Assembly (NCBI RefSeq): GCF_000722545.1
Contig: NZ_JNVM01000047.1
Coordinates: 12,767 to 52,766 of the forward strand
Length of the DNA: 40,000 bases
From: Paenibacillus tyrfis
Lineage (GTDB): Bacteria; Bacillota; Bacilli; Paenibacillales; NBRC-103111
Direction: 5' to 3'
Shown in pieces: positions 5,957 through 24,835 of the stretch. Below the pieces are notes generated by a model. It made no database searches and had not been told where the DNA came from. It saw only the letters and a list, made by a program, of their open reading frames with translations. A program made the translations under genes and the position numbers. Position 1 is the first letter of the stretch. Each line of letters opens with the position of its first letter.

Positions 5957-6685
5957 TCAAACCCCACGCTTGTTCCCCCACAATAAAGTATGTAACTGAG
6001 GGAGAACTTTAACTTGTTTTAACTCTGAGGAATCCATTACTTGATTTATCAGCCACTCATATCTCTCTAATAACTCGAACACCAATGCTTCCTTATCTGC
6101 AGTGGTTACATCCTTATTGCCGACCTGTAAAACAAGCCTCATTTGAGGATAACGCTTATGAACCTTTACGGCATACTGAAGATCATATTCATCAAAAACG
6201 ACTACTTTGATACATACTTCATTGTTCTCACCATTCAAATTCTGAATGATTCCATCAAGCTTGTCCCAATCAGTTATCATTCCTGAACTTGGTGGTTTAG
6301 GGGAAATCGTCAAATCGTCGATATCCCTCATCCACGTTTGCCATCTGCTTCCTTGTGTTTCTAGCCCAACACGAACTCCATTATCATGAAGCAAATTAAC
6401 CAAATGACCAATATTTTTTATTAGCGCAGGATTCCCACCAGAAATTGTAACATGCTCGAACGTTATTCCACCAATAGACACTAACTCATCCCAAATCGCT
6501 TGAGCAGACAGTTGCTTGATTTCTTCCTTTGCAGAACCATCCCATGTAAAAGACGAATCGCACCATGAACAGGAGTAGTCACAGCCAGCTGTTCGAACAA
6601 ACATCGTTTTCTGACCAATAACAAGTCCTTCTCCTTGAACAGTTGGCCCAAATATTTCAAGGACGGGAATCGTATTACTACTCAT
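5957..6685 (-). CDS. queE: 7-carboxy-7-deazaguanine synthase, a radical SAM enzyme of the Bacillus type (about 240 aa).
   Basis: The radical-SAM motif CDYSCSWC sits in the context VRTAGCDYSCSWCDS. The size is 242 aa. Its ATG overlaps the queD stop as ATGA (6682-6685). Confidence 0.9.
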   Translation of the reverse strand: MSSNTIPVLEIFGPTVQGEGLVIGQKTMFVRTAGCDYSCSWCDSSFTWDGSAKEEIKQLSAQAIWDELVSIGGITFEHVTISGGNPALIKNIGHLVNLLHDNGVRVGLETQGSRWQTWMRDIDDLTISPKPPSSGMITDWDKLDGIIQNLNGENNEVCIKVVVFDEYDLQYAVKVHKRYPQMRLVLQVGNKDVTTADKEALVFELLERYEWLINQVMDSSELKQVKVLPQLHTLLWGNKRGV

Positions 6686-7119
6686 GACCTATCTCCTATC
6701 CGGGGGCGATAGATCACATAGCTAGTAGGAGTTTCTCTCAAAAAAATTTGCAGACATTTGGGTTGGTTAGGAAGCGAATCTAGATAATCTTGTATTATTG
6801 TCCAAGCAGTTCGCGCAACAACTTCAGTGCTAGGAAATATGTTTCCTTGCTCCTCATTAAATAGAGGATCTTCATTGATTAATTTATGGTCAAATCGATC
6901 ATGTATAAGTGCCTTAAGATCAGAGAAATTAACAAGAAACCCCGTATCATCTAAGACATCGCCAACGATACAAACATTCATAAAATAAGTGTGACCATGT
7001 ATTCTACTGCACTTTCCAGCGAGATCACTTGGTATGTAATGCGCGGCTGCAAATTGAAGATCTTTATTCAATTCGTAAACAAACGAATGGTTCACAGAAG
7101 GATATATTTGTTGAAGCAT
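6682..7119 (-). CDS. queD: 6-carboxy-5,6,7,8-tetrahydropterin synthase.
   Basis: The motif CSRIHGHTY (CxxxHGH) is present and the size is about 145 aa. I prefer the ATG at 7119, which is preceded by GGAGGA at a 7-nt spacing. The track ORF starts five codons earlier at a TTG (7134). Confidence 0.9.
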   Translation of the reverse strand: MLQQIYPSVNHSFVYELNKDLQFAAAHYIPSDLAGKCSRIHGHTYFMNVCIVGDVLDDTGFLVNFSDLKALIHDRFDHKLINEDPLFNEEQGNIFPSTEVVARTAWTIIQDYLDSLPNQPKCLQIFLRETPTSYVIYRPRIGDRS

Positions 7120-7149
7120 ACTATCGTCCTCCAATTGAGGTATTTCTTT

Positions 7150-7803
7150 TTACTTACTTAACAGATATTCTTCCAGTCCTCTCTTACGTAAAATGCAAGC
7201 CGGGCATTCTCCACACCCGTCCGCAAGAATACCATTGTAACAAGTCAACGTATTATTACGAATATATTCGAATGCTCCCAGTTCGTCTGCAAGTTTCCAT
7301 GCTTGTGCCTTATTTAGCCACATCAATGGCGTTTCAATTACAAATTGGTAGTCCATTGATAAATTCAAAGTTACATTCAATGACTTAATAAACACATCAC
7401 GACAATCAGGGTAACCACTAAAATCGGTTTCGCACACGCCGGTGATGATATGCTTGGCTCCAATTTGTTTCGCAAGTATTGCTGCGAAAGAGAGAAAGAG
7501 AAGGTTACGCCCGTCTACAAATGTTGTCGGCAGCTTCCCCTCTTCGCTTGCTATATCAATATCTGATCGTGTTAGCGCATTAGGGGCCAATTGGTTCAAC
7601 AAGGACATATCCTGCACATGATGTTTAATGGACAGGTCCTTTGTGATTCGCGCCGCGCACTCAAGTTCAGCAGAATGGCGCTGACCATAGTTGAAAGTCA
7701 CTGCTTCAATTTCGCTAAAATGCTGTTTTGCCCAGAACAAACATGTTGTACTATCTTGTCCGCCACTAAATACCACGACGGCTTTATTATTATTTTTAGT
7801 CAT
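7150..7803 (-). CDS. queC: 7-cyano-7-deazaguanine (preQ0) synthase.
   Basis: The PP-loop [12 protein letters not shown] is present, along with the C-terminal zinc motif CYNG...[10 protein letters not shown]. The start [11 protein letters not shown] at 7803 gives about 217 aa, typical for QueC. The track ORF extends to 7860. Confidence 0.9.
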
Positions 7804-7872
7804 TAGCTTTACCCACTTTCTTACCAGTCTCATTTCTAATGATAACAGATGCCCTATCATATCGAAAGTCGA

Positions 7873-10800
7873 CTATTTATTGTCCCCTACAACTAATCTA
7901 ATCTCTACAACATCAAATAAATTTGGGAACTTTTCTTTAATTTCATCCAGCAGACGTTTCCATTGTACTGGAGGAAGTGTGCTATAACCATTTTCAACCA
8001 GTAATCGGACATGACGTTTTATTGATGGTCTGATTTGTGGACTTTCATTTATCTTTTCTAGTAGGTGATAGATATTTCCAATGTCTTCACAATCAAGGTC
8101 ATTTCTGATTACTTGGAGAAGATGCAATTTTGTTTGCTCATGCTGAAGTTTTCTTTCGGCCCAATCTCTTAGTTGATAGAAATCTATAGATTGCCATTCA
8201 GAAATTAAGGTAACCAATTCAGAACCGATAAGTTTCTTTTTCTTTAGACGATTCGCACAATTTGCTAATCTAAATTGGAGGTTCTTAATATGATCTAAAA
8301 CTTCTAACTTAATTTGAAGGCTCAGCAGATGCTTCACTAAATTCCGCGGAGTGAGAGCAAGGCAGTTGTTTAAACTTGATAGTTCCTGCACAATAGTTGT
8401 TAAGCTTGCTTTATTCGCCTCCAATTCAGACCACACTACTTCATCTTTTTCAGTAATTTCCGCTTCATCTCGTTCATAGTTTGTTTGCATGTTACACTCA
8501 GTAAGAAAGTCTGCAACTTCAAGTGCCATCTCGTCGAATTGTTTGGTTAACTGTTTTATCTCATCGTTTAAAGTAGTAGCCCTCTTATATTGAGCGGCAA
8601 GTTCTTGATTTTCTAATTCTTGTTCCAGCAAAGTGTAAGTAACAAAGTCTTGTTGTGTAACAATCTTCTTCTCGCTAAAAGCTTTAATCCGTCCAGCAAG
8701 TTCTATCAATTTCAAATTGCCCGAACCAATTAAAAATGGAATCATAGATGTTCTTTTCTGAAATGACTGCTTAAAGCTTTCGTGAAGTAGATCAGAGTAT
8801 CTGTGGTAACTTTCTTTCAATTGTGATAGAAATACCCTTAGAGTAGTGTTTCCAATTTGATAGTTTTCTAGGGTGTTCGATGGCGTGAGATTTCTAAACC
8901 AACGATCAAATTCTTCATTCGTCAACATGGCATTGCTTGGCGGCTGAAAAAAATTATCACGTAACAAGTACCAATCTGAATAACAATCCTCAAGCAGGGC
9001 TGTTAATTCTGTTCGGAAGGGAGAATATTGAATTACATTTGAGGCCCATAATGATTCACTGTATACTCGGGCATTTTGAACCCAATTTTTCATCCCGTAC
9101 ACAAAAACAGGAAGTTTCAACCCAAGAGCCTGCTCAAGAGAATTAAGCCATTCCTCATGGATTGACTCTGCTTGGTGTATCCATTTAGCAATTTCATACT
9201 CATTAGAAATTTTTTGAAATGTCTTGACCTTTTCTGAATATTTCATTGTTTGAAAGTTGGCAATTTGAATAGCAATATAACCCCTACTAACGCTTATTGT
9301 AGACTCATCATTGTTATCCTGGAGTGTAATTGGATACCGTGTTCGATTCACAACTTCATTTCGCTGAATGGTTGAGGAGGTTCTCGATGTGAATGAGCGA
9401 GACATATGAACCCCCTTTATAGCATCATGCACCAATGCCGCCACCCCAGATCTAACCGGTAATAATAATTCTTCATTTACTTCTCTTCCTTCCACCCAAT
9501 CTCTAACTACTTCTTTTTCATTGAAACCAGTATTACTATCTCTTGTCGGCTCTTCGAGAAATTGCTGCTCCTCTCTTAAGCTATTTTCAATACTATTTAG
9601 TTTAACAACGATTTGGCTGTCCTTATATCCAAAGTGCTTTAATATAGGTTCAGAAATTGTAATCTTCCCCGCTTCTTCAGATGCATACCATTCTGCGAGA
9701 GTTTTGATTAAAACATCAGTATGCTCGGCGAACATTTCCCTTCTAATAAGAGGAAGAATTCTACTAATATCTTTCTTGCCTCTTAGAAAAAAGCGAATAA
9801 CTTCTTTACTATTCAAAATCATGTAACGTAATTTCCCTTTTCCCATTGGAATTGCATCATACGTTCGCCTTAACATATGACTATTAAATGGAAGCAACTG
9901 CACTTCAATATCGCTCAATTTAGAATCATTATTGCTTGATTCTAGGGTATTACTTGAACATTGGTTGTAGTAAGGACATTCAGGAGAGCATTTAAAGCCT
10001 TGTGTTGCTTTCAACTGTGTAAGGTAATTAGCCATATATGGAATTACTTGTTTACGATCTAGGTTGAAAAAGTCTTTTCCTGACTCGTCAGATAGCCATA
10101 ACTTTTTCACACGGTCATTGATAGTATCAAGATTCTTGATTCTTTGAGTAAGACTAAATCCTTTTTCTGTGTCCTGAACCGCGCCAGGAGTTAGACCAAT
10201 TACTACATCCCAATTACCCTCTTCTAACGTAATAAGTTGATCCAATATATTTGTTGCATAAATGTTAACCGATTGAACAAGATCGTCAATTAGTAGCAAT
10301 GGACGGATACCCTTGCTTTTTATCTGCTGCGACAATTGTTTAAACAGGGTTCCAATGTCCCGTCCCTCAAAAAGAAAATGGTCTAGTTTCCGAGAAAGAG
10401 TTTGTCGAAATGGTGCATACTCCAGGGAGATATTAAGAGTCGTATTAGCAAGTAAAGATTCGAACTGCTCACGATGCAGGACTTCTAGTGGTTTTTTGAT
10501 TTTTCCTCGTTTAATTTGAGAAGTAAATTCAACAATGTTATTCTCAATTATAGGTCTCAACAATAGTGCTGCTGGAACAATTTCCTCATCGGATTCCAGC
10601 GATTCGGCAAGTGCTGTCCAAACCATTTGATTAATAAGCGTAATAGGCTTTTTGAGTAATAGCCCCCACTTATCTTCATCAATGCAAACATCTAAAGACA
10701 AATCTAATGCATCTAAACATTTTTTGATCAGTGTCTGAGGGTTTAACTCCGTTCGTGAAATTCGTATCACCGGTCGTTCAGATACTTCCACTAACCATTT

Positions 10801-11064
10801 ATCTTTTAGCCAACGAAGCAGTTCAGATTTCCCTGATCCCGTTGAACCAAATACTAAATAAACCCTGTTGCCATCAGAATCAACTTCTTTGAGTTCTTCC
10901 AGTAATTCGCCTTCCGTAACCTCGGCGATCAGTTGACTATCATTAAATCTATGCATTACTTGAGGGAAATGGGTTTTCCTAAAATACTCAGGCGATTGGT
11001 CGTAACGCTCGTCTGCAGTCCCTACTAAAAGTTTAAGCGAATTTTTGTTGAGACAAGGCATCAT
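7873..11064 (-). CDS. Large P-loop NTPase of 1063 aa. The family is not recognised.
   Basis: Walker A is VFGSTGSGKSELLRWL and Walker B-like is RPLLLIDDLVQS. A long, probably helical C-terminal region follows. The gene overlaps the upstream 258-aa ORF by 32 nt, which suggests coupling. Confidence 0.7.
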   Translation of the reverse strand: MMPCLNKNSLKLLVGTADERYDQSPEYFRKTHFPQVMHRFNDSQLIAEVTEGELLEELKEVDSDGNRVYLVFGSTGSGKSELLRWLKDKWLVEVSERPVIRISRTELNPQTLIKKCLDALDLSLDVCIDEDKWGLLLKKPITLINQMVWTALAESLESDEEIVPAALLLRPIIENNIVEFTSQIKRGKIKKPLEVLHREQFESLLANTTLNISLEYAPFRQTLSRKLDHFLFEGRDIGTLFKQLSQQIKSKGIRPLLLIDDLVQSVNIYATNILDQLITLEEGNWDVVIGLTPGAVQDTEKGFSLTQRIKNLDTINDRVKKLWLSDESGKDFFNLDRKQVIPYMANYLTQLKATQGFKCSPECPYYNQCSSNTLESSNNDSKLSDIEVQLLPFNSHMLRRTYDAIPMGKGKLRYMILNSKEVIRFFLRGKKDISRILPLIRREMFAEHTDVLIKTLAEWYASEEAGKITISEPILKHFGYKDSQIVVKLNSIENSLREEQQFLEEPTRDSNTGFNEKEVVRDWVEGREVNEELLLPVRSGVAALVHDAIKGVHMSRSFTSRTSSTIQRNEVVNRTRYPITLQDNNDESTISVSRGYIAIQIANFQTMKYSEKVKTFQKISNEYEIAKWIHQAESIHEEWLNSLEQALGLKLPVFVYGMKNWVQNARVYSESLWASNVIQYSPFRTELTALLEDCYSDWYLLRDNFFQPPSNAMLTNEEFDRWFRNLTPSNTLENYQIGNTTLRVFLSQLKESYHRYSDLLHESFKQSFQKRTSMIPFLIGSGNLKLIELAGRIKAFSEKKIVTQQDFVTYTLLEQELENQELAAQYKRATTLNDEIKQLTKQFDEMALEVADFLTECNMQTNYERDEAEITEKDEVVWSELEANKASLTTIVQELSSLNNCLALTPRNLVKHLLSLQIKLEVLDHIKNLQFRLANCANRLKKKKLIGSELVTLISEWQSIDFYQLRDWAERKLQHEQTKLHLLQVIRNDLDCEDIGNIYHLLEKINESPQIRPSIKRHVRLLVENGYSTLPPVQWKRLLDEIKEKFPNLFDVVEIRLVVGDNK

Positions 11065-11809
11065 TTAAATCACATCTCCTCTCCACCTTTATCCAATTGA
11101 AGTCATTTTTAGGTCCATATGATTTATAGGGTAAATCTTGCACGTAACTCAACTCCAACGCCCCTTCTTGATGTAACGCCATTAAAGAAAAGATAACCCC
11201 TCTGTATATATTTCCTTCAGATGTTAAGCACGGTATGACCGGATGAATAATATTTTCACAAAATGGATGCAATCCACCCTCCCATGCCTCATTCCCCTTA
11301 ATGATACTTTTCATTAACGAAAGCTGTGGAAGTGCATAGAAACCTGAGTATATACGTCTACCCAATCCCCAGCACTCCATCATTCGCTTCCAGGCATTAA
11401 CTTTCTCGTGCCCGACTAATGTTTTCATTAATTGGCTATTGATTTGATAGTGAATATTACTCACAAACAATCGATCCGGCTTTACAAATAACTGTTCAAA
11501 CAGGGAAGCAAATATTTTATCAAGCGAATCGCTAGGTAGATCTTCAGACATTGAAAGTTCCCTTAACTTAAAAAAAACCTCTTTGTTGCACCATGGCTTG
11601 TCTTGTAGTACAAAAAATTGAGATTTGTCTTTATATACAAACTGTAGATCCTCTAATACGGTCAAGCCGCATTCAATTAAAGATGTAATGTCCCCGTTAT
11701 CACCATACTGAAATCTTGTTTTTAACATCTTTACATCCAGTCCTGGATTAGTTCTTAAATTTTCATAAATCACTTCAATTTCCGGTCCGTAGCACATTTG
11801 AAACAACAT
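11033..11809 (-). CDS. Hypothetical protein of 258 aa with no recognisable motif.
   Basis: This is a long ORF packed into the operon. It overlaps both neighbouring genes, by 35 nt upstream and 32 nt downstream. An alternative start exists at M5 (11797). Confidence 0.55.
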   Translation of the reverse strand: MLFQMCYGPEIEVIYENLRTNPGLDVKMLKTRFQYGDNGDITSLIECGLTVLEDLQFVYKDKSQFFVLQDKPWCNKEVFFKLRELSMSEDLPSDSLDKIFASLFEQLFVKPDRLFVSNIHYQINSQLMKTLVGHEKVNAWKRMMECWGLGRRIYSGFYALPQLSLMKSIIKGNEAWEGGLHPFCENIIHPVIPCLTSEGNIYRGVIFSLMALHQEGALELSYVQDLPYKSYGPKNDFNWIKVERRCDLNDALSQQKFA

Positions 11810-12796: not shown

Positions 12797-12825
12797 TATA
12801 AAAAAAAGAAGCCATCAGGCTTCTT
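12797..12825 (-). terminator. Intrinsic terminator immediately after the 264-aa ORF, inside the gene cluster.
   Basis: The stem pairs aagaagcc (12806-12813) with ggcttctt (12818-12825). The 4-nt loop contains the stop codon. On the minus strand the hairpin is followed by a T-run of 8 or more. Confidence 0.7.
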
Positions 12826-13609
12826 TTATCCATTGTCTCCATATTTCATATATTAAATCGCGTTGTGCATCATTAAATTTAAAACTTCCTTTATTAACAA
12901 GTAGCACTGGGTTGTCTCGGTCAAAAAACTGACCATTCCAATTCTCATAATGAAATTCTTCTGTGAGTAGCGGCCGCGGCTGATTGGTTAGATGAGAATC
13001 CTCAGTCCACTGCTCCATGAAATATCTAATATAGCAATACCAGGCAATGGCTGAGTCAGCAATGGATTTTTTTCGAAATTGTTTCCTCTGTGCTACAGGA
13101 AGATATCCTAGTTCAGGATAATGATTCATTATAGATTCAACATATTTAATTAAATCTTTAGCTAATTGAGGACATAGGCTATGTTCAACTCGATACCTTT
13201 GAAAGTCCTTGAAAATATCATGCAGCGATCTAATGGTCATTAATTTTGTGGAGTTGCTGCTTATTTTCTCCCCCTTCTCAATCAACCGCTCAAAACGCTC
13301 ATATGACATTAATTGATGCATACAGTAGCTAGGAAAGTACTGGGTTTCAGATACAATTAGAACGACGTATTCATCACTGATACTGCCGTTGGGCAATTTA
13401 TAAGTAAACCGGGGGTTCGTCACTTGTAACTTATCGTTTAAAAAACTTACCACAGTATCATAATTTACTAAAATGACGTCTTCGCCAACTACATCAGACT
13501 GAATTATAGAAAAACCCCAGTCTTTAATCACACCTAATGGCAGTACAGCAAGATACACGTCACTATTCTTTCTGGTTAAATTTCTTACGTTTTCAAAAGT
13601 AAAAACCAT
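12815..13609 (-). CDS. Hypothetical protein of 264 aa with no recognisable motif.
   Basis: This is a long ORF in operon context. The SD-like sequence GGGGGA lies upstream of the ATG. I saw no ParB/DGQHR, nuclease or methyltransferase motif. Confidence 0.55.
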   Translation of the reverse strand: MVFTFENVRNLTRKNSDVYLAVLPLGVIKDWGFSIIQSDVVGEDVILVNYDTVVSFLNDKLQVTNPRFTYKLPNGSISDEYVVLIVSETQYFPSYCMHQLMSYERFERLIEKGEKISSNSTKLMTIRSLHDIFKDFQRYRVEHSLCPQLAKDLIKYVESIMNHYPELGYLPVAQRKQFRKKSIADSAIAWYCYIRYFMEQWTEDSHLTNQPRPLLTEEFHYENWNGQFFDRDNPVLLVNKGSFKFNDAQRDLIYEIWRQWIKEA

Positions 13610-13666: not shown

Positions 13667-15697
13667 CTAATTATTCCACTGTTTTTTTAATTCTTGAATT
13701 TGACTGTAGTAGACATGAGTATTATGAAACCCTCTTCGTCTGTTTCTATTATTACCTCTAAATACAATCACATCGATTCCAATTTCCTTACATATATTAC
13801 AGCCACATTGTTCCCATGGACGTTCAGACAAAACCTCTCTATAGAGATCCTCATGCACTTCGCGCTTCTCCCCTAGAATTTTATCATATTCCAGTATAGC
13901 TTCAAGTGTGGATGATAATTCCCTTTTCCCAGCACTGAATTCCCTTAAAGCGATTAATGCCTCCTGTTCGAGCCTCTTATATTGATCAAACTCAATCTCA
14001 TCATTATTTTGCATCATTTTTTTTACTCTTCCGGACGTTTCTTTTGCTTCAGGTATTCTAATCGCTGTGTAATGTTTACCACTTAAGGTATGATAGTTAT
14101 GTCCAGTTCCTAACCACGCTCTTCTTAAGGGAGAAGATGAGTCAAACGAAGTCACGCCTAGTTTATGGAAGGATTCCATTGTTTTCATATCTCGTGCAAC
14201 TCCAAACAAGTGCATACGAAACGTAGGACTCGGAATAACAGGTGCTATTTCTTTAAGAATTTCATATATTTTTTCAGATTGTTCTCTGGCTAAACCACCC
14301 AAGGCAATATAGTCATAACCTAGTCCAATAAGATGCTCTACTGCTCTACGGAAAGAAGGTGGGTCCCATCCTTGAACTATACCTATCGGATGAAACTGAT
14401 AATTCCTTGTCTCCTTATTCTCCCTATACATCCGTATAAACTCTTCCGCCATAGTAAGGGTTAGTTCATAACGCTGATTTCTTATATTTTCATCTCTTTG
14501 AAAAGGGCCTACTATTAGATGGTCAATTGACACTCCATAATCAAACCCCAGTTTGTGGTAGTAGTCAATGATCTCTTGAGTAGTATAAGGCGGGACTTCT
14601 TTATCAATATAACTAAAGGCACCGCAATCACCCATAATCGGATATTCTCTAGGAAGTCGATAAAATTCGTGCAATCCCATATCTTGAATCATCTGATTTT
14701 TCAACTTTGTAGCATTATCGATGTTCACTTTAGAAACAAGGAGTCCATCAAATTGAGGTCTTTCAAAAATCTGATGAGCGTACACATCGTTTTCTAATGG
14801 ATTTCTATTCTTCTCAGAGAAATCACTCATAAAATCATAATTTGGATCGACCCTATCATCATTCTCTGGAAGATAAAATTTTGGTTCTTCAATGCAATTT
14901 ATAGCAACTAACTCATCTGGCACAGGAAACATTTCATTATAAAACAGTAATAAGTCTTCATTTCCTGATATGTCACTAAAAAGTTCAAGTTGTTTTTTAG
15001 AGGAAATTGAATTGAAAATATACTCTCTAATTTGATTAGGACTATACATAATTGCGTCCCACTTTAGATCAATGTTATCCGAAATGATGCTCTTTAATAA
15101 ATGTGAAAAAAGATAACCCTTGATTCCTATCAAACCATATTTAAATGTCTTAGCTTCTTTTTCCCCAATAGTTAATACATGATAATCGTCCCAATTTAGA
15201 ATCCTAGAACGACTGGATGCTCCAGCAAAAAAGATCGCTTTTTGATTACTTTGTAGCTTTAATGGCCACTCCACTGCTTGCAAATATTTATCTCCAAGTA
15301 AGAAAAAAATAAGATCATAGTCCGCAACTTTTGTTTGCAAAGCTTGTGTAATTTCAAGTTCGCGCGCCCATTTTTTTATAGTCTGCGAGTCCATTGTATT
15401 GAAAGTCACTTCATAGGGAACAATCTGAGAGTTTTCATTCAAAAGACCATAACCCGCTGAAATAATGCATAGGTCAATTTTTCCACCTTGTTGCCGATAT
15501 TCTTTAATACCACTCATTAGAGCAAGGTGCTGACTCCCTGTGTACATTTCATCAGCACGTTCTTTGAATTCCAACAATTCTGCTTCTCTTTGTTTTAATA
15601 CATCTTTATTCTTGAAATCATCGAATACAAGTTGATTTATCGGTTTATGTAACTTCTCTCCAGTACAAGAAGTGACAACAAGAATACGTTTTGACAA
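13667..15697 (-). CDS. Fusion protein of 676 aa. An N-terminal DUF6884/YaaA-like domain is joined to a C-terminal TGT-fold (DpdA-like) transglycosylase.
   Basis: The C-terminal half carries MGDCGAFSY, IGIVQG, GYDYIALGGL, HLFGVA, GVTSFDSSSP and the zinc motif CGCNIC followed by His (FHNTH). The N-terminal ~200 aa carry ILVVTSCTGEK, then MYTG, then CIISAGYGLL...IVPYEVTF...KKWA. From memory, this pattern matches DUF6884 and resembles the YaaA/DUF328 core. The start is TTG, with AAAGGATGGG upstream. Confidence 0.75.
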   Translation of the reverse strand: MSKRILVVTSCTGEKLHKPINQLVFDDFKNKDVLKQREAELLEFKERADEMYTGSQHLALMSGIKEYRQQGGKIDLCIISAGYGLLNENSQIVPYEVTFNTMDSQTIKKWARELEITQALQTKVADYDLIFFLLGDKYLQAVEWPLKLQSNQKAIFFAGASSRSRILNWDDYHVLTIGEKEAKTFKYGLIGIKGYLFSHLLKSIISDNIDLKWDAIMYSPNQIREYIFNSISSKKQLELFSDISGNEDLLLFYNEMFPVPDELVAINCIEEPKFYLPENDDRVDPNYDFMSDFSEKNRNPLENDVYAHQIFERPQFDGLLVSKVNIDNATKLKNQMIQDMGLHEFYRLPREYPIMGDCGAFSYIDKEVPPYTTQEIIDYYHKLGFDYGVSIDHLIVGPFQRDENIRNQRYELTLTMAEEFIRMYRENKETRNYQFHPIGIVQGWDPPSFRRAVEHLIGLGYDYIALGGLAREQSEKIYEILKEIAPVIPSPTFRMHLFGVARDMKTMESFHKLGVTSFDSSSPLRRAWLGTGHNYHTLSGKHYTAIRIPEAKETSGRVKKMMQNNDEIEFDQYKRLEQEALIALREFSAGKRELSSTLEAILEYDKILGEKREVHEDLYREVLSERPWEQCGCNICKEIGIDVIVFRGNNRNRRRGFHNTHVYYSQIQELKKQWNN

Positions 15698-15728
15698 AAA
15701 AATCCCATCCTTTACTCACACCAATATA

Positions 15729-15752
15729 AAATAGGGCGAGAACGCCCTATTT
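15729..15752 (-). terminator. Terminator-like hairpin overlapping the stop codon of the transporter gene.
   Basis: The stem pairs aaatagggcg with cgccctattt (10 bp) around a 4-nt loop. It is followed by tatatt on the minus strand. The U-tract is weak, so termination may be only partial. Confidence 0.5.
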
Positions 15753-16265
15753 CCAAACAACTTTTGCATGCTTTAAAAAAATTTTTTTCACAATAATTGC
15801 AGCAAATAATTGAACCAATGTCTTAACAATGATTTGACCAACAATCGCCAGAAATACAGCATTCCAGGGAAGAATATTGGCCCCCAATGGTGATAGTCCC
15901 ACAACAACAAAAATAATACTATCTAGTATTCCTCCAACAATACCACTGTATGCTACCCTCATATGAAAAGGTAGTTTAAGGCGTGAATAAATTTCTGTAT
16001 CTGTAGTCTCGGATACCGCAAATGTAATGATTGAAGCAAATACAATCCAAAGTGTATCCCCAAGTAAATATGATGTTAATGCCGATAAAACCATTGCTAT
16101 TAAAATGAGTAAATAGGTCTTCCGCCTACCAACAAAATTTTGCACAAAATCGCGGAATATAAATGTTGCCCCTATTATAAATGTCCCTGCCGGAATAATA
16201 AAGGGTCCAATAAAAAATGGGGGTATTCCTGCTGTTACGACATTTGAAGAAATAATAGCCAGCAA
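15747..16265 (-). CDS. Queuosine-precursor (preQ0/preQ1) transporter of the YhhQ/VUT family. This is a short form.
   Basis: The protein is polytopic and hydrophobic. GATFIFRDFVQNFVGRR resembles the YhhQ core (compare FLxTDxxxExYG), and GGILDSIIFVVVG resembles the C-terminal family motif. The listed start is TTG. An in-frame ATT at 16292 has a better-placed SD sequence (AAGAGG, 16302-16307). An in-frame stop at 16299-16301 caps the N-terminus. Confidence 0.65.
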   Translation of the reverse strand: MLAIISSNVVTAGIPPFFIGPFIIPAGTFIIGATFIFRDFVQNFVGRRKTYLLILIAMVLSALTSYLLGDTLWIVFASIITFAVSETTDTEIYSRLKLPFHMRVAYSGIVGGILDSIIFVVVGLSPLGANILPWNAVFLAIVGQIIVKTLVQLFAAIIVKKIFLKHAKVVWK

Positions 16266-16474
16266 ATAAGCTACAATTGTTAAATATTTAATTTTACATC
16301 ACCTCTTCAATTCAATCCATCATTAATTATAACACCACTTTTTGTTCCGAGCTACCCTTGCCAAGCTAATTAATTTATCCAATCATTGGCTAGCTTGAAG
16401 GTACAGGGCAACATCTTGTTCTACTTGATAATCTATCAAATCGAGTTATTTTAGGAAGGGTATAAATACAATAG

Positions 16475-17045
16475 TTATCTTACTCTCCCATACATCACCC
16501 GCTTATCCCCATCAAACAAATTCCGACAAACCACCTGCCCACGCCTGGAGGATGCATCGACCGCCTAGCCATTCCCTGCATAAATACCTACATGCGTAAT
16601 ATCCATAAAACGACCATTCTGTTCATAACTCCAGAAGACCAAATCACCTGTTGCTAAATCTTCATATTGTATTGCCATCTCATTTTCTAAATATAACGTG
16701 CCTGCTCCGCTGCAGTGCGCGGCAACTGAATATTTAGCTGCTTATAAACCCATTGCACAAGGTAACTACAATCTGTGTAGCGATCCTGCCCCGCCTTCGG
16801 CTGGCTATACGGATCACCCAAGCGAGATCAATGCCAGCTTAACAGCCTCAACGCCTCGCTCCTCCTCTGACAAATCACGATAAACAAGTTCAAGCTGTTC
16901 CTGAGATAATCCTGTGTCGCTGTCCTTGCCCAAAAGTGCAAACATAAGTGGTCTGAACTCCTCTGACAACAGCTCCTCCATAAGTGAATCCTGAAGCTGT
17001 AGGCTGCTGATTGCTCATCTGCTGTTCGGCTGGTAATGGTTTTAT
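16475..17045 (-). pseudogene. Decayed NlpC/P60 cell-wall hydrolase gene of the type found on conjugative elements.
   Basis: The minus-strand translation gives LGDPYSQPKAGQDRYTDCSYLVQWVYKQLNIQLPRTAAEQARY in one frame. It gives ENEMAIQYEDLATGDLVFWSYEQNGRFMDITHVGIYAGNG-stop-AVDAS in another. That is at least two frameshifts plus a premature stop. The 5' limit is approximate. Confidence 0.65.
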
Positions 17046-17155
17046 CGTATCATGGTTAAAAGGAACTACGAAGAATTTCTTTCATTAATATAAAAAAAGA
17101 ACAGCCCAATTTGTCTGACTGTTCACTCTACATCTGTAATCTCTGCTCAATGCGC

Positions 17156-17269
17156 TCATCCCATTGAGGAGAATCCGACCGATATGTTATTGAAAATACT
17201 AATCCCTAGCCGATCAACGATGAGATTACAAATTGTACTTTTTCCGCTGCTATTGTTACCCGCAAAGAC
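17156..17269 (-). pseudogene. Orphan P-loop fragment, a gene remnant.
   Basis: The minus strand reads VFAGNNSSGKSTICNLIVDRLGISIF, which includes a Walker A motif. The fragment is bounded by an in-frame stop upstream and another 38 codons later, and it has no start codon. Confidence 0.35.
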
Positions 17270-17385
17270 TTACATCATTGGAATCGTTTCATGCATACGA
17301 GATATCCGGGTCACCTGTTGATTTCCTTTCCCAAAAACAACCACCCCCATTCCGATTCGTAGAACTGGCTTCCGGGCTCCCCTTG

Positions 17386-17556
17386 TTAAATTCCACCTTG
17401 ATTCCTGAGCCATTCCTCTATTATTTCAATAGAAAAAATAATCCTTCTTCGAATTCTAACATGAGGAATTTGTTTTTCCCGAACCATTGCATAGATACTG
17501 TCGGTTGATACATTTAAATACTGGGCTATCTCAGAAACAGTAAAAATTTTTTTCAA
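17386..17556 (-). CDS. xis: Excisionase-family (MerR/AlpA-type) HTH DNA-binding protein of 56 aa.
   Basis: The ORF is below the track's length cut-off, so I translated it by hand: (TTG)MKKIFTVSEIAQYLNVSTDSIYAMVREKQIPHVRIRRRIIFSIEIIEEWLRNQGGI. It fits the excisionase-family pattern (T..E.A..L.vs...iy..v....iP..rig.r..f....i..Wl). AAAGGAA lies upstream of the start. Confidence 0.7.
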   Translation of the reverse strand: MKKIFTVSEIAQYLNVSTDSIYAMVREKQIPHVRIRRRIIFSIEIIEEWLRNQGGI

Positions 17557-17979
17557 GTTACATCATTCCTTTACTATATTTCTAATCATTTTTTTGTTAA
17601 AATGTACCTGCATCTACCACGCGAGCTCTCCTCATGCTCGTGCCTGTTCTCCACAGGCCAAAACAGCACTCAGCTGTAATCACGCTCCCCCTAGCGGCTA
17701 AAGTTATGCTCTCTTTAAGCATGCCTAATTCGTGATTAAACGCGGAGAACCTGAATTCCAAGCTGTCTTCTCAATTCTCCCGATCTAGCTAATAACTTTT
17801 AAATTGCAAACACTTTGAGAAATTTATCTCAAGGTGTTTTTAATGTGCATATTAATTTTTAATCGAATCGGTTCACTTACAGTGCGCCTGTAAACATATT
17901 AAAAAAGTTTGTTTCCCTTGGAGGTGTTCTGCTCGAACTCATTATTAAAAGTATAGTCATTGCTTTGCTTTTCCTTGAA

Positions 17980-18000
17980 ATCCTTAGTCTGACTAAGGAT
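17980..18000. repeat. 21-bp palindrome atccttagtc-t-gactaaggat.
   Basis: The palindrome has perfect 10-bp arms around one central base. It lies in the 660-bp non-coding stretch upstream of the 284-aa ORF. Confidence 0.85.
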
Positions 18001-18169
18001 GATTTAATCCTACTATTTCACGTTGTATAAAGCTTTTGATGGGGATTAGGTACAAAGTGGTTTCAATTTATGCATATTTACAGATTCAAGTTCCTACGTC
18101 TAATAATTTTTAGTGGAGGTGTACCATATAGTATCAAATCTTTCCTTTTATACGACGGGTTTACGAATA

Positions 18170-18184
18170 CTTAGTCGGACTAAG
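18170..18184. repeat. 15-bp palindrome cttagtc-g-gactaag, with the same core as the palindrome at 17980-18000.
   Basis: The palindrome has perfect 7-bp arms. It lies 33 bp upstream of the listed start of the 284-aa ORF. Confidence 0.8.
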
Positions 18185-18216
18185 AATTTCAATAGCACTC
18201 CTAAAACTGCGATATC

Positions 18217-19071
18217 ATGGTTAGTGGTGATGAACATATGACACTTGATCCAATAATGTATAAGACGAATCGCAGCACAGTACACGAGCACTACAACATA
18301 TACTTAATTGAGACCCAGAAGAAAGAGCCCGTAGATAGTGCAGTTGTTGAAGCAAGAAATAACATTCTAAGCCTTTTCCATTATGAACTGCTTATTTTGC
18401 AAAGTTCCAAAGAGCATTGGGAAAGGCTGATGAACGATCCCAGTCTTAATTTTAGGCGAGAGTTATGTGCTAAACTCTACAGACTCGAACGGGCAGATAT
18501 CATGGTAGAGCTAGATCTATCAAGTGGTGCAGTAAGTAATCTATTTAACGAATCTACCAAGCCAAATTGGCCGCGGCCATTTCAACTTAGCGTTCTTTTT
18601 GAGCACCCGTGGCAGCTTATCAATTATGAGATTCCTGATCCATATTCTTACTCTGAATCGCCGGAGTACTTTGAAGAAAGAGTATCAAAAAAAATACACC
18701 TTAATGATCTGGCGAATGAAAGATCAAAAGTATTGAGCATTAGAGGATACGTGATTGTCAATGCCCCAGAGTTGTTCCAACAGGAATCAACTGCTTTAAC
18801 CGGTCGCTGGGTGACGACATACCCCGAATTTGATTACTTTGAATTTCATCTGAATCACGAGCCTATAATCGATAAGGTGCTTCGGGAATCACTTCTGAAA
18901 CTGTTTCCGATGGCTAACCACATGATTACAACATATCGTCCATTTAAGCCGCTAACCAAACGGGCGTTATGGGTCATTATCCCTAAAAACGAAACATCAC
19001 CTTCATACGAAGGAATTCTTCACGAACTGAAGAAGTATCGGGAGCATACGGAATACCACAGACTGAAATAG
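18217..19071 (+). CDS. Hypothetical protein of 284 aa with a possible HTH segment.
   Basis: The ORF is in the track. The segment RRELCAKLYRLERADIMVELDLSSGAVSNLFN looks XRE/HTH-like. The start could be the ATG at 18238 instead. The family is not recognised. Confidence 0.5.
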   Translation: MVSGDEHMTLDPIMYKTNRSTVHEHYNIYLIETQKKEPVDSAVVEARNNILSLFHYELLILQSSKEHWERLMNDPSLNFRRELCAKLYRLERADIMVELDLSSGAVSNLFNESTKPNWPRPFQLSVLFEHPWQLINYEIPDPYSYSESPEYFEERVSKKIHLNDLANERSKVLSIRGYVIVNAPELFQQESTALTGRWVTTYPEFDYFEFHLNHEPIIDKVLRESLLKLFPMANHMITTYRPFKPLTKRALWVIIPKNETSPSYEGILHELKKYREHTEYHRLK

Positions 19072-19185: not shown

Positions 19186-20727
19186 GTGGACCACTTCGAA
19201 AAAACAAAATCTTCGAACCAAAACCCTCACCAGATCAATGATCTGGAATCTACAAAAAAACAAGAATCTTTTCGGCAGAATGCTTCTTTTGCCGAAAAGA
19301 TTCTTCTCAATGAAGGTATGTTTACTCGCCGTGGTGACGATCATGATATTAGAAAAATAACCCGAGCGAGGATTGAGAACATGCTCTATGCAAACAGCCT
19401 ACAGCAGTTAGAAACACCCGTAAACATTTACCTTGGCCGACAAGGAATCAACCAATGGATATGGGAAAACAAAGTGATCTTAGAGATCCCAACGGAAATA
19501 TTAAAGAAGTATCTCCTTCGCAAAATGACCAAAGATGCCTTTATTTTCTATAAAGAGTATATCATGGTCCACGAACTAGCACAAAAAATTGGCGTCTATT
19601 TGAAAATACCTGCAAGCCAAATTATGGATGAACAACTACTGAGTGATGAAGTTTTGACTTATTTATCAACATCACTTGCAACAACTGGCATGCAACAAAA
19701 ACTGATAGCGTTTGTCGTTCAGCATGCCAATCAGTATCTAAAAACTCCCTTGCACAATACAGAAAAATATAGCCTTCTATTTTCTCCGCTAAAAAATCGT
19801 AAAGGAAAGCCAGTTCACCCGAAAATTGAAATGTATATGAAGCAGTTAACAAAAGAAGGAAAATCCGGACATACCCTAGCAAGAGTCACAACTCACATCA
19901 ATTCTATGCTGTTCTGGTTAGTTAACAATATGAAGGATTTCGCAGCATGTAAAACTCATACAGTTCCAATCTTATCTATTAAAGAGATGCACCTACAGGA
20001 ATTTCGTTCCTACCTTCTAAAGAAACAACGAAAAGGAGAGTACAGCTCAATCACCATCAGTGAATGCATCTATGCGATTAAAAGCTTCTTTCTATTTTTG
20101 CAAAAAACTTATGGGTTTCCAGACCCCGCAAAAAAGATTAAATCAATCAAAGCGTCTCGATATCGTTTCCGAAACCTGCCTACTAAAGAACAGATCACTG
20201 CGTTTTTTAATGTGATTGAAACGTATTCCGAAAATCCACTTTTGGAGCGTATCGCTTTTCAATTTATGCTTACACTTGGCTTGCGCTCTATGGAAGTTTC
20301 GCAAATATCCTTGAATGACATTAATATGGAGATCCGAACGATTTCTATTCACAGCAAAGGCGGAAAACATCACGAACTGCCGCTGGCGGGAAAACTCTAT
20401 CGTGATCTAGAAATGATCAAGAGTATTCCATCAACGTCAAAGTACTTATTTGGCGATGATCCAAAAAAGATGATAAGAGAACTTCAAGAAAACTATAAAT
20501 TATACAGTCAAATCGCTGGCTGGACTTTCCCTGGTGGATTACATTTGTTCCGTCATTGTTTCGTAACGAATCTAGCGGGTCAAAACCCGCCACCACAAGT
20601 GCTTCAGGCACTTTCCCGGGTAATTAAGATGGATACGGTCAGTTTATATACCCATCTTAATCAGAAGTCGAATTGGCTTTCTCAAGAATTGAATAAGCTT
20701 GATTATTCATATCAAGGAGGTAAATGA
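19186..20727 (+). CDS. Tyrosine recombinase, first gene of the trio (513 aa, with a long N-terminal extension).
   Basis: Motifs: LGLRSMEVSQISLNDI (Arg), HLFRHCFVTNLA (HxxR) and VSLYTHL (Tyr). The start is GTG, preceded by GGAGGA at a 7-nt spacing. Confidence 0.85.
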   Translation: MDHFEKTKSSNQNPHQINDLESTKKQESFRQNASFAEKILLNEGMFTRRGDDHDIRKITRARIENMLYANSLQQLETPVNIYLGRQGINQWIWENKVILEIPTEILKKYLLRKMTKDAFIFYKEYIMVHELAQKIGVYLKIPASQIMDEQLLSDEVLTYLSTSLATTGMQQKLIAFVVQHANQYLKTPLHNTEKYSLLFSPLKNRKGKPVHPKIEMYMKQLTKEGKSGHTLARVTTHINSMLFWLVNNMKDFAACKTHTVPILSIKEMHLQEFRSYLLKKQRKGEYSSITISECIYAIKSFFLFLQKTYGFPDPAKKIKSIKASRYRFRNLPTKEQITAFFNVIETYSENPLLERIAFQFMLTLGLRSMEVSQISLNDINMEIRTISIHSKGGKHHELPLAGKLYRDLEMIKSIPSTSKYLFGDDPKKMIRELQENYKLYSQIAGWTFPGGLHLFRHCFVTNLAGQNPPPQVLQALSRVIKMDTVSLYTHLNQKSNWLSQELNKLDYSYQGGK

Positions 20728-21833
20728 GCATGCCTATTTACGATAAGGAATTTGAAATGGACCTCTTACTAGAGGACAAGATTAAAGAAATGGCCGAAGC
20801 ATACGGCCCCCATAAATTTCTGCAAGCGTTAAATCAAATGGATTGGGTTCCAAAAGTCACTAACAACGAAAAACCTTCCGAACATGTGATGCTCCATGAT
20901 GCGGTCGAATTCTATTTTTCGAGTGATTCATTTACAGAACTTGCAAAAGCATCACAAGTAGCTTACCGCTATGAAATGAATTTGTTTATCAAATTCTGTA
21001 ACCAACATTTCGATCAAGACCCGGATTTCAAAACGATTTGCACCTCTCAATTTTTAAGCGATTACTTAGCGCCAGTGAGAAATAAAAATACACGAAGCAA
21101 AAAGGCTGCATTTTTGAGAAGCTTTTTGCGAACCATTCTTGAGCATTTTTATGAACAAAAGATAGATAAACTAAAGCGGGTATTAAAGGTAGAGGTCGAT
21201 AAAAGACGTGTACCGCGTGCATTCACCAAAGAACAAATTGAAGAGTTGATCATGCTAGCAAGATTAGGTCGTGAGTCCCATCGGAACTTTATAATTCTAT
21301 GGACATTCCTCGGGACCGGAATTCGCCTCAGTGAATTATGTTCTCTTCAAATTGGGGACATAAAACCGCAGACGCAAGACATTTACATTCGTTCGAAGGG
21401 CGAAAAAGACTTTAAATCCCCATGCAAAATCACTAACTTTTCGCTTGAATTGCTGTGTAAGTATGTAAATTTCAGATATGGCGCTCTTAAGGACTTGACC
21501 GATTATACTGAACGATATGTGTTCTCCGACGATAAAGGGATATCACCACTGCATGAGAGTACAATCCAAAAAATGTTTACCAGTCTTATTGACGAGGCGT
21601 CAACGATTACTGATGATGACAAACGCGTTTATCAACTATCCGTACACTCCCTTCGTCATTCGTTTGCCCTTTATTTGCTGGAGTCCGGTGTAAATATATA
21701 CACCATTCAGGAGTTGCTTAGGCACAAATGGCTCAGTTCAACATTAGTTTATCTTAAAATGTTTGACAGCATGCTTGTCAAAGTTATTAATCAACATCCG
21801 CTAGGAAATCTAAAAGTCAATGATTTTTTCTAA
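20724..21833 (+). CDS. Tyrosine recombinase, second gene of the trio (369 aa).
   Basis: Motifs: TGIRLSELCSLQIGDI, HSLRHSFALYLL and STLVYLKM. The gene overlaps the first recombinase gene as ATGA. Confidence 0.85.
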   Translation: MSMPIYDKEFEMDLLLEDKIKEMAEAYGPHKFLQALNQMDWVPKVTNNEKPSEHVMLHDAVEFYFSSDSFTELAKASQVAYRYEMNLFIKFCNQHFDQDPDFKTICTSQFLSDYLAPVRNKNTRSKKAAFLRSFLRTILEHFYEQKIDKLKRVLKVEVDKRRVPRAFTKEQIEELIMLARLGRESHRNFIILWTFLGTGIRLSELCSLQIGDIKPQTQDIYIRSKGEKDFKSPCKITNFSLELLCKYVNFRYGALKDLTDYTERYVFSDDKGISPLHESTIQKMFTSLIDEASTITDDDKRVYQLSVHSLRHSFALYLLESGVNIYTIQELLRHKWLSSTLVYLKMFDSMLVKVINQHPLGNLKVNDFF

Positions 21834-21846
21834 GGAGATCCAATAG

Positions 21847-22785
21847 ATGAACAACATTTTGTTCGAATCCAAGTACTATAGATTTTGGTATGAGCATGTA
21901 GATCTTACGGCGAAGGAATATGTTGAACGCGATCTACGAAAATTTGAAAAGTATTTACATTTAAGAGGGTTTGAAGGAGAACTTGATTTCGACAAGTTTC
22001 ATGCCAGCCAAAAGCATCCCGACTCTTTTCGTCCCATTCAACAATACTTTATCGACCAATTTGTAGAATACCTTCGCGTGGATTATCAGGCAACGAAGAA
22101 TGTTATGTACAATGCGATCAGTTCTTTAAAAAATTTCTTTAAATTCCTATATGATATGGAGTTAATTCAACAAAACCCGATGGAGGATTATCCAAATCCA
22201 TATTACGACCGGCCGATCAAAAATACTGCACTTTCAAAAGAGGAATGCCTTGCTCTGCTCGGTGCTGCCTTAAAAAAAGATCCTTTCTTCCGTCAGGAAT
22301 TCGTTTTGATTTGGTTCATGTTGATTACGGGGCTTAGGAATTCAGAAGTTAGATCCGTTTCTCGAACCAGTATTAACCTAGAGAACAGGATGGTAATGAT
22401 TATACAAGGGCAGAAAAATGATGCTCGTTCTACCAGTATCACAACTGCCCTATCAGAAGAGCTTAGACGGTATATCAATCATCCGAACTATATCGCTTGG
22501 GCAGAGAAAGGTAATGACAAGCTGTTTTTTCGGAAAGAAAAACCATTAACCTATAAAGCGTTACAGGTAATCCTAAAGGATTTATGCCTCGACGCTAACT
22601 TATCTAGGATTGTAACCCCTCATGATTTGAGGCGTACTGCTGGCTATCTCATGCAATCAGCCGGAATGAATATGGTCGAAATTCAAAGGCAGCTCGGGCA
22701 TCAGATAATGGCTACAACATTACGCTATATCCCACCGTTGAATGACTTAGCCAAAATCCTGGCCAAGGAGGATGAACAACAGTAA
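21847..22785 (+). CDS. Tyrosine recombinase, third gene of the trio (312 aa).
   Basis: Motifs: TGLRNSEVRSVSRTSI, HDLRRTAGYLM and ATTLRYIP. The sequence AAGGAGATCC lies upstream of the ATG. Confidence 0.85.
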   Translation: MNNILFESKYYRFWYEHVDLTAKEYVERDLRKFEKYLHLRGFEGELDFDKFHASQKHPDSFRPIQQYFIDQFVEYLRVDYQATKNVMYNAISSLKNFFKFLYDMELIQQNPMEDYPNPYYDRPIKNTALSKEECLALLGAALKKDPFFRQEFVLIWFMLITGLRNSEVRSVSRTSINLENRMVMIIQGQKNDARSTSITTALSEELRRYINHPNYIAWAEKGNDKLFFRKEKPLTYKALQVILKDLCLDANLSRIVTPHDLRRTAGYLMQSAGMNMVEIQRQLGHQIMATTLRYIPPLNDLAKILAKEDEQQ

Positions 22786-22870
22786 TAAATGTGTAACCGT
22801 AAGCTTCCCCCATACTTCTTTAATGGCACAAATGAAAAAAACAAATTTTGTAACAAAGGAAAACTGTTAT

Positions 22871-23294: not shown

Positions 23295-23347
23295 AAACTA
23301 CTCACTAAATTATTATAAGGAAATGACAATAAGTATATACCAAACTT

Positions 23348-23377
23348 AAGGGTCCCGTTAACGGTGAGGCCCTTTTT
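23348..23377 (+). terminator. Weak terminator-like structure with a T-run, downstream of the recombinase genes.
   Basis: An outer stem aaggg/ccctt encloses the palindrome ccgttaacgg and is followed by ttttt. The stem is imperfect. Confidence 0.35.
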
Positions 23378-23501
23378 CAATACTGTAATTTATGTCATCC
23401 ACGTTTCTTTTGAAACATTAAGGGGAAAAATGTAAATATACTTTGCTGATTTTTCATTCTTTACAGCAGAGCACAACACTCTGGAGTTGGAGAGATTTAG
23501 T

Positions 23502-24760: not shown

Positions 24761-24835
24761 GTCTGATTTTCGTCCTCTGTACCACTAATATTTAAACTCT
24801 GTATCACATCGAAAAACCCAGTAAATATAAGGATT

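Follow-up and report, generated by a model that had tools for sequence, protein, structure and literature searches.

Can a single polypeptide both insert a 7-deazaguanine base into DNA and complete the chemistry of that base? This question is raised by a gene in a 40,000-nucleotide stretch of the Paenibacillus tyrfis genome (contig NZ_JNVM01000047.1; the whole stretch is called the window from here on), in which a DpdC-like domain of the DUF6884 family is joined, within one open reading frame (ORF), to the DNA-guanine transglycosylase DpdA. Among known restriction-modification systems, the Dpd system has been called the largest and the most complex, and what is known of its biochemistry comes from one Salmonella example, in which the modification proteins are three separate ones. 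Experiments have shown that DpdA and DpdB, together with ATP, insert 7-cyano-7-deazaguanine (preQ0) into DNA and that, in Salmonella Montevideo (S. Montevideo), DpdC turns preQ0-DNA into dADG-DNA (dADG, 2'-deoxy-7-amido-7-deazaguanosine) independently of DpdA and DpdB. The window presents a widespread alternative layout, in which insertase and finishing enzyme are parts of one protein, the supposedly essential ATPase is absent in the lineage, and a second transglycosylase paralog is present. We conclude that the fusion is an uncharacterised, widespread DpdC-DpdA class of a known DNA-marking defence system, and no new kind of system, and we consider it probable that the fused protein is bifunctional, inserting preQ0 into DNA and converting it in cis to the 7-amido form.

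Results

The C-terminal part of the fusion is a complete DpdA

The fusion gene (the coordinates of this and all other features are collected in Table 1) has an unbroken frame of 676 codons beginning with TTG, with an AAGGA Shine-Dalgarno-like site 5' of this start and only six sense codons between the upstream stop codon and the TTG. The G+C content of the gene is 35.7%. A Pfam scan assigned residues 334-529 of the product to the tRNA-guanine transglycosylase (TGT) family (PF01702; E 2e-14) and residues 44-159 to DUF6884 (E 7e-13). In the alignment to the DpdA crystal structure (PDB 7UI4), the DpdA homology starts at residue 271, and it is preceded by an N-terminal extension of ~270 aa, made up of a domain (residues 1-235) and a linker (residues 236-270). 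Residues 235-244 are the sole disordered part of the full-length AlphaFold model (predicted local distance difference test, pLDDT, <50). A preliminary description of the gene, made from the letters alone, had placed a DUF6884/YaaA-like domain in an N-terminal extension of about 300 aa; the domain is there, but the extension is slightly shorter.

The C-terminal part matched the NCBIfam DpdA equivalog NF041059 with 455.2 bits (cutoff 200), the match running from residue 273 to residue 669 and from position 2 to position 405 of the 406-position model, and it matched the 7UI4 sequence over fusion residues 271-668 with an E value of 4e-90. A Foldseek comparison of the model with 7UI4 gave an E value of 1.6e-37, a template modelling (TM) score of 0.89 (normalised to target length), a root mean square deviation of 2.1 Å, and 36% identity. 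The equivalog score and the 7UI4 alignment therefore indicate a complete DpdA that follows ~270 added residues. In S. Montevideo DpdA, Asp95 acts as the general acid/base, Asp256 as the nucleophile, and Phe99 as a gate (PMC10164549). The alignment to 7UI4 equates Asp95 with Asp357, Asp130 with Asp392, Asp256 with Asp519, and Phe99 with Phe361 of the fusion, and these four residues, together with Cys631, Cys633, Cys636, and His658, are invariant across 52 fusions; all of them correspond to residues with a demonstrated or proposed catalytic role in the S. Montevideo enzyme (PMC10164549). The TGT motif series listed in the preliminary description was recovered throughout, with DCGAFS at residues 357-362, IGIVQG at 438-443, ALGGL at 465-469, SFDSSSP at 517-523, CGCNIC at 631-636, and the final histidine at 658. 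The fused domain has the same catalytic aspartate trio and zinc site as its S. Montevideo counterpart and differs from it at His181, which is replaced by Gln442 (GVAHGW in S. Montevideo DpdA, GIVQGW in the fusion), a residue that is invariant in the fused class. We conclude that the C-terminal domain is a DNA-guanine transglycosylase of the DpdA type that is complete and lacks none of the catalytic or zinc residues, and its sequence leads us to expect that it would exchange guanine for preQ0 in DNA.

The same architecture was found far beyond the window. A protein search retrieved more than 120 clusters of 660-740 aa that contain both PF21818 (DUF6884) and PF01702 and are 45-87% identical to the fusion; these come from Paenibacillus, Fontibacillus, Brevibacillus, Bacillus, Tumebacillus, Laceyella, Desulfosporosinus, and many metagenomes, and NCBI labels such relatives 'tRNA-guanine transglycosylase DpdA'. 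Orthologues of 87-92% identity are of equal length, the 92% identical protein being that of Paenibacillus glucanolyticus NBRC 15330 (L012). A scan of one genome per species yielded at least 579 relatives of the fusion, the best 80 loci of which (L012-L091) were analysed. In all 80, the match spans query residues from about 4 to 670 within a 670-730-aa architecture, and hidden Markov models (HMMs) trimmed to the single domains placed both domains at equal positions in 80 of 80. The trimmed HMMs were used because iterated searches with the whole ORF drifted across the fusion, with TGT and DUF6884 queries returning the same 133 ORFs. The 80 loci cover Bacillota, Cyanobacteriota, Chloroflexota, Deinococcota, Planctomycetota, Verrucomicrobiota, Acidobacteriota, and Pseudomonadota. 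The preliminary description had allowed for two genes split by a sequencing frameshift; the architecture shared by the clusters and the 80 loci is that of one gene.

The N-terminal domain is homologous to canonical DpdC

The region preceding the DpdA homology matched DUF6884 (PF21818) with 49.3 bits as part of the full protein and with 51.3 bits as a domain alone (gathering cutoff 30). The Pfam entry defines DUF6884 by the motifs CxxxK and LSAxxG and names YaaA as a distant relative, in agreement with the preliminary description, and both motifs are present in the fusion (C11-T-G-E-K15 and I79-S-A-G-Y-G84). All of the N-terminal motifs quoted there were found, namely SCTGEK (residues 10-15), MYTG (51-54), SAGYG (80-84), PY (94-95), and KKWA (108-111). 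DpdC itself was placed in DUF328 by earlier work, which agrees with a further point made there, and a 2025 genome-mining study gives DUF6884 as the Pfam domain of dpdC genes. The PADLOC DpdC models matched residues 4-153 of the fusion with E values of 3e-12, 2e-8, and 1e-7, and the PADLOC DpdC matches as a whole ranged from 3e-12 to 5e-5. NCBIfam returned no DpdC match for either the N-terminal domain or canonical DpdC, and a DpdC model is seemingly absent from that library.

As the canonical reference, we used the DpdC encoded by Enterobacter cloacae plasmid pPOL9A (NZ_CP086409.1; L010:12965-13921), on which dpdA, 92% identical to the crystallised DpdA, is followed by dpdB and preceded by the dpdC ORF. 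Read from a GTG start at 12965, the latter encodes 318 aa with the N terminus MSNINLITTCTNGK. RefSeq calls this gene a 'hypothetical protein' starting at 13070, which loses the N-terminal strand with TTCTNGK (CxxxK) that is regained by the GTG at 12965. An hhalign comparison of the N-terminal domain profile with this DpdC gave a probability of 97.1% and an E value of 5.8e-11 over 180 columns (residues 4-192 against 3-221), and BLASTP of the domain against canonical DpdC gave an E value of 5e-8 over the core. An alignment of fusions from four phyla, the haloarchaeal version described below, two stand-alone proteins, and two canonical DpdCs contained 12 invariant positions: Cys11, Lys15, Ala48, Tyr52, Gly54, Ser80, Ala81, Gly82, Gly84, Tyr95, Thr98, and Tyr138. 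Cys11 and Lys15 are therefore common to the fused, stand-alone, haloarchaeal, and canonical sequences, and Tyr95 and Thr98 form a P-Y-x-x-T motif that the N-terminal domain has in common with canonical DpdC; Pro94 of this motif is conserved in at least 90% of the sequences and is Ser in one canonical DpdC.

The resemblance to YaaA is more remote. The YaaA/DUF328 family PF03883 scored 22.8 bits with the full protein and 24.9 bits with the domain, below its cutoff of 29.6. The closest solved structure to the model of the N-terminal domain is that of Escherichia coli YaaA, whose family has the 'cantaloupe' alpha/beta fold (PDB 5CAJ; Foldseek E 8e-5, probability 1.00), but the TM scores of 0.38/0.41 and the identity of 15% make this a likeness at the level of the superfamily only, and 5CAJ was not found when PDB sequences were searched with the domain profile. 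With DUF6884 proteins such as Bacillus subtilis YfjM, the N-terminal domain has in common its PF21818 score above the threshold and its CxxxK and (L)SAxxG motifs; YfjM stands alone and has been proposed to have a role in DNA repair, whereas here the domain is tied to a DNA transglycosylase in a 7-deazaguanine island. A search of phage genomes found no homologue of the N-terminal domain. Sequence comparison and the predicted structure thus show that the N-terminal domain is folded and strongly conserved, that it belongs to DUF6884, and that it is a homologue of canonical DpdC; by sequence its link to DpdC is stronger than its link to YaaA. The kinship with DUF6884 and DUF328 put forward in the preliminary description is borne out by the PF21818 score, the Foldseek match to 5CAJ, and the hhalign match to DpdC. 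Further, a second DUF6884 ORF that could represent a separate dpdC is not found in the 40-kb window, as had also been stated.

The fusion has apparently arisen more than once

In canonical clusters, as in S. Montevideo, dpdC lies immediately upstream of dpdA, which makes the domain order of the fusion the one expected from simple read-through. Haloarchaeal plasmids encode a 968-aa protein in which the order is reversed (TGT at residues 191-346, DUF6884 at 777-875), which implies that this version was fused independently, giving at least two events. In two cyanobacterial loci (L001 and L092), a stand-alone DUF6884 gene adjoins a DpdA gene, and these sequences are nested in the fused cyanobacterial clade of a neighbour-joining (NJ) tree. 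Two activities whose domains have been fused repeatedly, in either orientation, are classically taken to work on one substrate, and the fusion is an independent argument of the Rosetta-stone type that the product of DpdA is what DUF6884 domains act on.

At E <= 1e-3, the DUF6884 subfamily to which the domain belongs has 1976 representatives, and the 150 best of them are mostly ~230-250 aa long. In two loci, tandem divergent DUF6884 genes lie between secDF and a sigma-54 activator (L093:7141-7983 and 8001-8693; L095:7218-7982 and 8001-8693), with no TGT or preQ0 gene nearby, which suggests a Dpd-independent role of the domain subfamily. We also note a DUF6884-like stretch (31% identity) within a gene annotated 'AAA family ATPase' on an Azospirillum argentinense plasmid (hit H8, NZ_CP032326.1, 255286-255921), which may be a further fusion partner of the domain.

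Neither the pathway nor its components are new, and by the NCBI equivalog test the fusion is a DpdA. The literature compared on Dpd, DpdC, DUF328, and DUF6884 does not mention the fusion; the founding study (Thiaville 2016, PNAS) lies outside this comparison, and a prior description is possible. The architecture is common and already carries the 'DpdA' label and PF21818 in the databases. The fusion overturns no current view.

A second TGT paralog and the distribution of DpdB

In the lineage of the window, the fusion is accompanied by a second TGT paralog and not by DpdB. Neither PF14072 nor a combined DpdB/DndB HMM matched any window ORF of at least 70 aa, and the combined HMM found no DndB/DpdB-family ORF in any Bacillota-type locus. 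A DpdB HMM made initially of four proteobacterial sequences had given 0 of 80 fusion loci and was blind to cyanobacterial DndB-family proteins; once such sequences were joined to the HMM, 15 of the 80 loci, all cyanobacterial, became positive, and the proposition that DpdB is absent from all fusion loci was rejected. Neighbours were counted up to 10 kb from each of the 80 fusion loci, many of which have short flanks. On this basis, queC is present in 29, queD in 36, and queE in 29 loci, SNF2/DEAD helicases in 48, the big ATPase in 32, and a paralog resembling the short TGT of the window in 27.

This paralog, TGT2, is encoded two genes downstream of the fusion. Its motifs are intact (DCG, FDE, QGY, FDS, and CxCxxC..H), with the acid/base Asp, the nucleophile Asp, and the Gln kept, so that from its sequence TGT2 looks catalytically competent. 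TGT2-like paralogs also occur at L004, L006 (P. polymyxa CP002213), L008:15167-16114, and L009:17840-18874 and in haloarchaeal plasmids. Arrangements of two TGT paralogs are known from the eukaryotic QTRT1/QTRT2 heterodimer and from archaeal ArcTGT and ArcS, and such pairs are either a catalytic/non-catalytic dimer or an insertase with a base-modifying paralog. Here, too, two TGT-fold proteins are encoded side by side, but neither has lost its nucleophile, its acid/base Asp, or its zinc ligands, and the presumed target is DNA. TGT2 could be a heterodimer partner of the fusion, a second insertase, or an ArcS-like modifier.

The 27 loci with a TGT2-like paralog and the 15 with a DndB-like gene do not overlap at all among the 80, these being raw counts over related genomes with short flanks. 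This suggests, as a lead rather than a result, two subtypes of fused-DpdA systems, one with TGT2 and one with a DndB-like protein. A broader proposal, which we put forward tentatively and would not be surprised to see fail, is that the fused enzymes form a separate Dpd branch with DpdB-independent modification. The fusion and TGT2 would then act as a heterodimer or as a pair for two marks or two contexts in the Bacillota-type systems, a DndB-like protein would take the place of TGT2 in the cyanobacterial subtype, and the tethered DUF6884 domain would pass the flipped base from the insertion site to a finishing site.

Weighing the proposed function of the fusion

If the fused protein is bifunctional, preQ0 would be supplied by the products of neighbouring genes, either through synthesis (QueC, QueD, and QueE) or through import (YhhQ). 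The DpdA domain would swap preQ0 for guanine in host DNA by way of a covalent Asp519-DNA intermediate, with Asp357 as acid/base, and the tethered N-terminal domain would then hydrate the nitrile of the inserted preQ0. By analogy with the thioimide step of QueF, this conversion might proceed via a thioimidate on Cys11, with Lys15 assisting. DpdE, DpdF, and the DpdH-like ATPase would restrict DNA that does not carry the mark. The second reaction, its product, and the Cys11/Lys15 thioimidate chemistry are the parts of this scheme that we infer. If the scheme is true, it describes a simpler, one-protein route for writing 7-amido-7-deazaguanine into DNA, and the invariant Cys-x3-Lys offers a handle on the active site of DUF6884/DpdC.

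Several observations weigh against the bifunctional reading. DpdB is absent from the window, although canonical DpdA requires the DpdB ATPase, and we found no enzymology or DNA mass spectrometry for any fused member. The N-terminal domain is only ~20% identical to canonical DpdC; the C-terminal tail of the latter (~80 aa) is missing from fused and stand-alone forms alike, and the PADLOC DpdC matches reach only profile positions 3-116 to 3-167 of ~300-320. In a rough NJ tree that included one canonical sequence, this DpdC stands on a long branch as the outgroup to all DUF6884 sequences, whether fused or stand-alone. In five of nine distinct stand-alone contexts (L002, L093, L095, L096, and L097), no TGT or preQ0 gene lies within 6-10 kb, one of these (L002) being a defence island with GIY-YIG, ADP-ribosylglycohydrolase, and McrBC genes; preQ0 need not, therefore, be the only concern of the domain, and the active site that it shares with its relatives may serve a broader DNA-directed reaction. 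Finally, the apparently active TGT2 complicates the question of which enzyme inserts which base. It is because of the distance to DpdC, the absence of DpdB, and the stand-alone contexts without a TGT that we hold bifunctionality to be probable and no firmer than that, and keep two other readings, of low and of still lower probability, beside it.

The first of these is that DUF6884 is an accessory domain, which binds DNA and flips or presents the nucleotide to DpdA, partly replacing DpdB, with dPreQ0 as the mark. A DndB/DpdB-family ORF is found neither in the window nor in the Bacillota-type loci, YaaA (the nearest solved fold) has been described as a DNA-binding protein, and for YfjM, itself a DUF6884 protein, the flipping of a nucleotide into a pocket has been predicted. 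Stand-alone relatives without nearby preQ0 or TGT genes would also fit such a role, and dPreQ0 is the sole product in some validated dpd islands. However, the Cys/Lys pair and the SAGxG residues that the domain has in common with DpdC, a proven enzyme, are invariant, which fits an enzyme better than a binder. Further, the 15 cyanobacterial loci that have both a DndB/DpdB-like gene and the fused domain imply that the N-terminal domain is no general replacement for DpdB. We therefore regard an accessory role as unlikely.

The second is that the N-terminal domain makes a different product, such as a carboxylate or other adduct, or acts on a base inserted by TGT2, so that the mark would be new for bacterial Dpd. 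The long branch, the ~20% identity to canonical DpdC, and the missing tail are in keeping with a changed reaction, as are the replacement of His181 of canonical DpdA by the invariant Gln442, as in tRNA TGTs, the second TGT with intact catalytic residues, and the at least eight 7-deazaguanine derivatives in phage systems. Against this, the island has QueC, QueD, and QueE only, with no QueF, amidotransferase, methylase, or formylase, and the set of conserved motifs equals that of DpdC; we consider a different product improbable, more so than an accessory role. That the fusion is an artefact, in which dpdC-like and dpdA genes were joined through a fault of sequencing or assembly, or else a pseudogene in decay, a thought for which one might point to the few cyanobacterial loci where the two parts are separate neighbours or have overlapping ends (L001, L092, and L068), is refuted by conservation and retains practically no probability: the frame is uninterrupted, the 87-92% identical orthologues are of the same length, the more than 120 clusters and all 80 loci have alike domain boundaries, the invariant residues are kept in both domains, and the full-length model is confident.

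The fusion lies in a horizontally acquired Dpd island

As listed in Table 1, the fusion belongs to a co-directional array on the minus strand, in the order yhhQ, fusion, 264-aa gene, TGT2, 258-aa gene, ATPase gene, queC, queD, queE, dpdE, and dpdF. The yhhQ gene, directly upstream of the fusion in the window, adjoins the fusion in 18 of the 80 loci, and the core from yhhQ to the ATPase gene, with proteins of 263 and 256 aa in the place of the 264-aa and 258-aa proteins, is also found in Fontibacillus and Paenibacillus polymyxa.

Table 1. Features of the fusion gene and of the Dpd island in the window
Feature	Positions	Strand	Basis and remarks
DpdC-like (DUF6884) + DpdA fusion, one ORF	13667-15697	minus	676 aa; AlphaFold full-length pLDDT 90, predicted TM score (pTM) 0.83
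DUF6884/DpdC-like domain, residues 1-235	14993-15697	minus	PF21818, PADLOC DpdC, hhalign; model pLDDT 89
S-C-T-G-E-K, residues 10-15 (CxxxK motif)	15653-15670	minus	Cys11 and Lys15, putative catalytic pair
S-A-G-Y-G, residues 80-84 (LSAxxG motif)	15446-15460	minus	Ser80, Ala81, Gly82, Gly84 invariant
P-Y, residues 94-95 (start of IVPYEVTF)	15413-15418	minus	Tyr95 invariant
Interdomain linker, residues 236-270	14888-14992	minus	between end of DUF6884 domain and start of DpdA homology
DpdA (DNA-guanine transglycosylase) domain, residues 271-676 and stop codon	13667-14887	minus	NF041059, 7UI4
M-G-D-C-G-A-F-S, with Asp357 and Phe361	14612-14635	minus	alignment to 7UI4
S-F-D-S-S-S-P, residues 517-523, with Asp519	14129-14149	minus	equivalent of DpdA Asp256
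C-G-C-N-I-C zinc motif (Cys631, Cys633, Cys636)	13790-13807	minus	His658 (13724-13726) completes the site
YhhQ/Vut_1-type queuosine-precursor (preQ0) transporter	15747-16265	minus	PF02592, 58.6 bits; TIGR00697, 42 bits, below cutoff 51
264-aa conserved protein	12815-13609	minus	no family match; syntenic in 14/80 loci
TGT2, short TGT paralog, 310 aa	11775-12707	minus	PF01702, 55 bits; DpdA model, 75 bits against cutoff 200
258-aa conserved protein	11033-11809	minus	no family match; overlaps both neighbouring genes; in 19/80 loci
P-loop ATPase, 1063 aa, weakly DpdH-like	7873-11064	minus	NF041065, 29.9 bits against cutoff 450; AAA_22; PADLOC DpdH E 4e-7
queC	7150-7860	minus	preQ0 synthesis
queD	6682-7134	minus	preQ0 synthesis
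queE	5957-6685	minus	preQ0 synthesis
DpdE, SNF2 helicase	2426-5761	minus	NF041062 equivalog, 941 bits against cutoff 500
DpdF, RecQ-like helicase	1-2433	minus	NF041063 equivalog, 858 bits against cutoff 550; 3' end beyond window edge

Like the S. Montevideo system, the island combines a DpdA and a DpdC homologue bearing the DpdC motifs, in the same order, with dpdE, dpdF, and preQ0 genes. It differs in that DpdC and DpdA form one polypeptide lacking the DpdC tail, in the His181 replacement, in the absence of DpdB from the window, and in the addition of a TGT paralog and two conserved unassigned proteins; recognisable dpdD, dpdG, dpdI, dpdJ, and dpdK genes are likewise not found within the window. 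The 264-aa and 258-aa proteins had no match in Pfam, NCBIfam, or PADLOC. Their assignment as divergent forms of DpdB, D, G, H, I, or K was rejected, with hhalign probabilities below 9%.

The array has a G+C content of 36-40%. A sharp break in composition separates the island side of the window (positions 1-24700) from the housekeeping genes to its right (24800-40000), which have ~59% G+C and where genes for a TrmA-like methyltransferase, a diacylglycerol kinase, CbiX, an old yellow enzyme-type reductase, and glyceraldehyde-3-phosphate dehydrogenase are located. Four consecutive tyrosine recombinase genes on the plus strand (19186-24677; 513, 369, 312, and 396 aa) lie at the edge of the island and are probably its mobility module. 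The low-G+C array, the tyrosine recombinases, and the ~59% G+C of the housekeeping genes together point to a horizontally acquired island, and we infer that the fusion is the modification enzyme of this Dpd restriction-modification island.

With regard to the remainder of the window, the first three tyrosine recombinase genes are arranged like a recombinase trio, and a 284-aa ORF without a family match (18217-19071) precedes the recombinases. In the ~2 kb that separate yhhQ from the next gene of some size (16266-18216), no ORF exceeds 91 aa, and Rfam and tRNA scans of the window, this interval included, returned no match. A second low-G+C patch (42-43%) at ~32-34.3 kb holds two ORFs. Finally, the interval between yhhQ and the fusion gene contains, at ~15725-15745, a GC-rich hairpin and, after it, a T-run.

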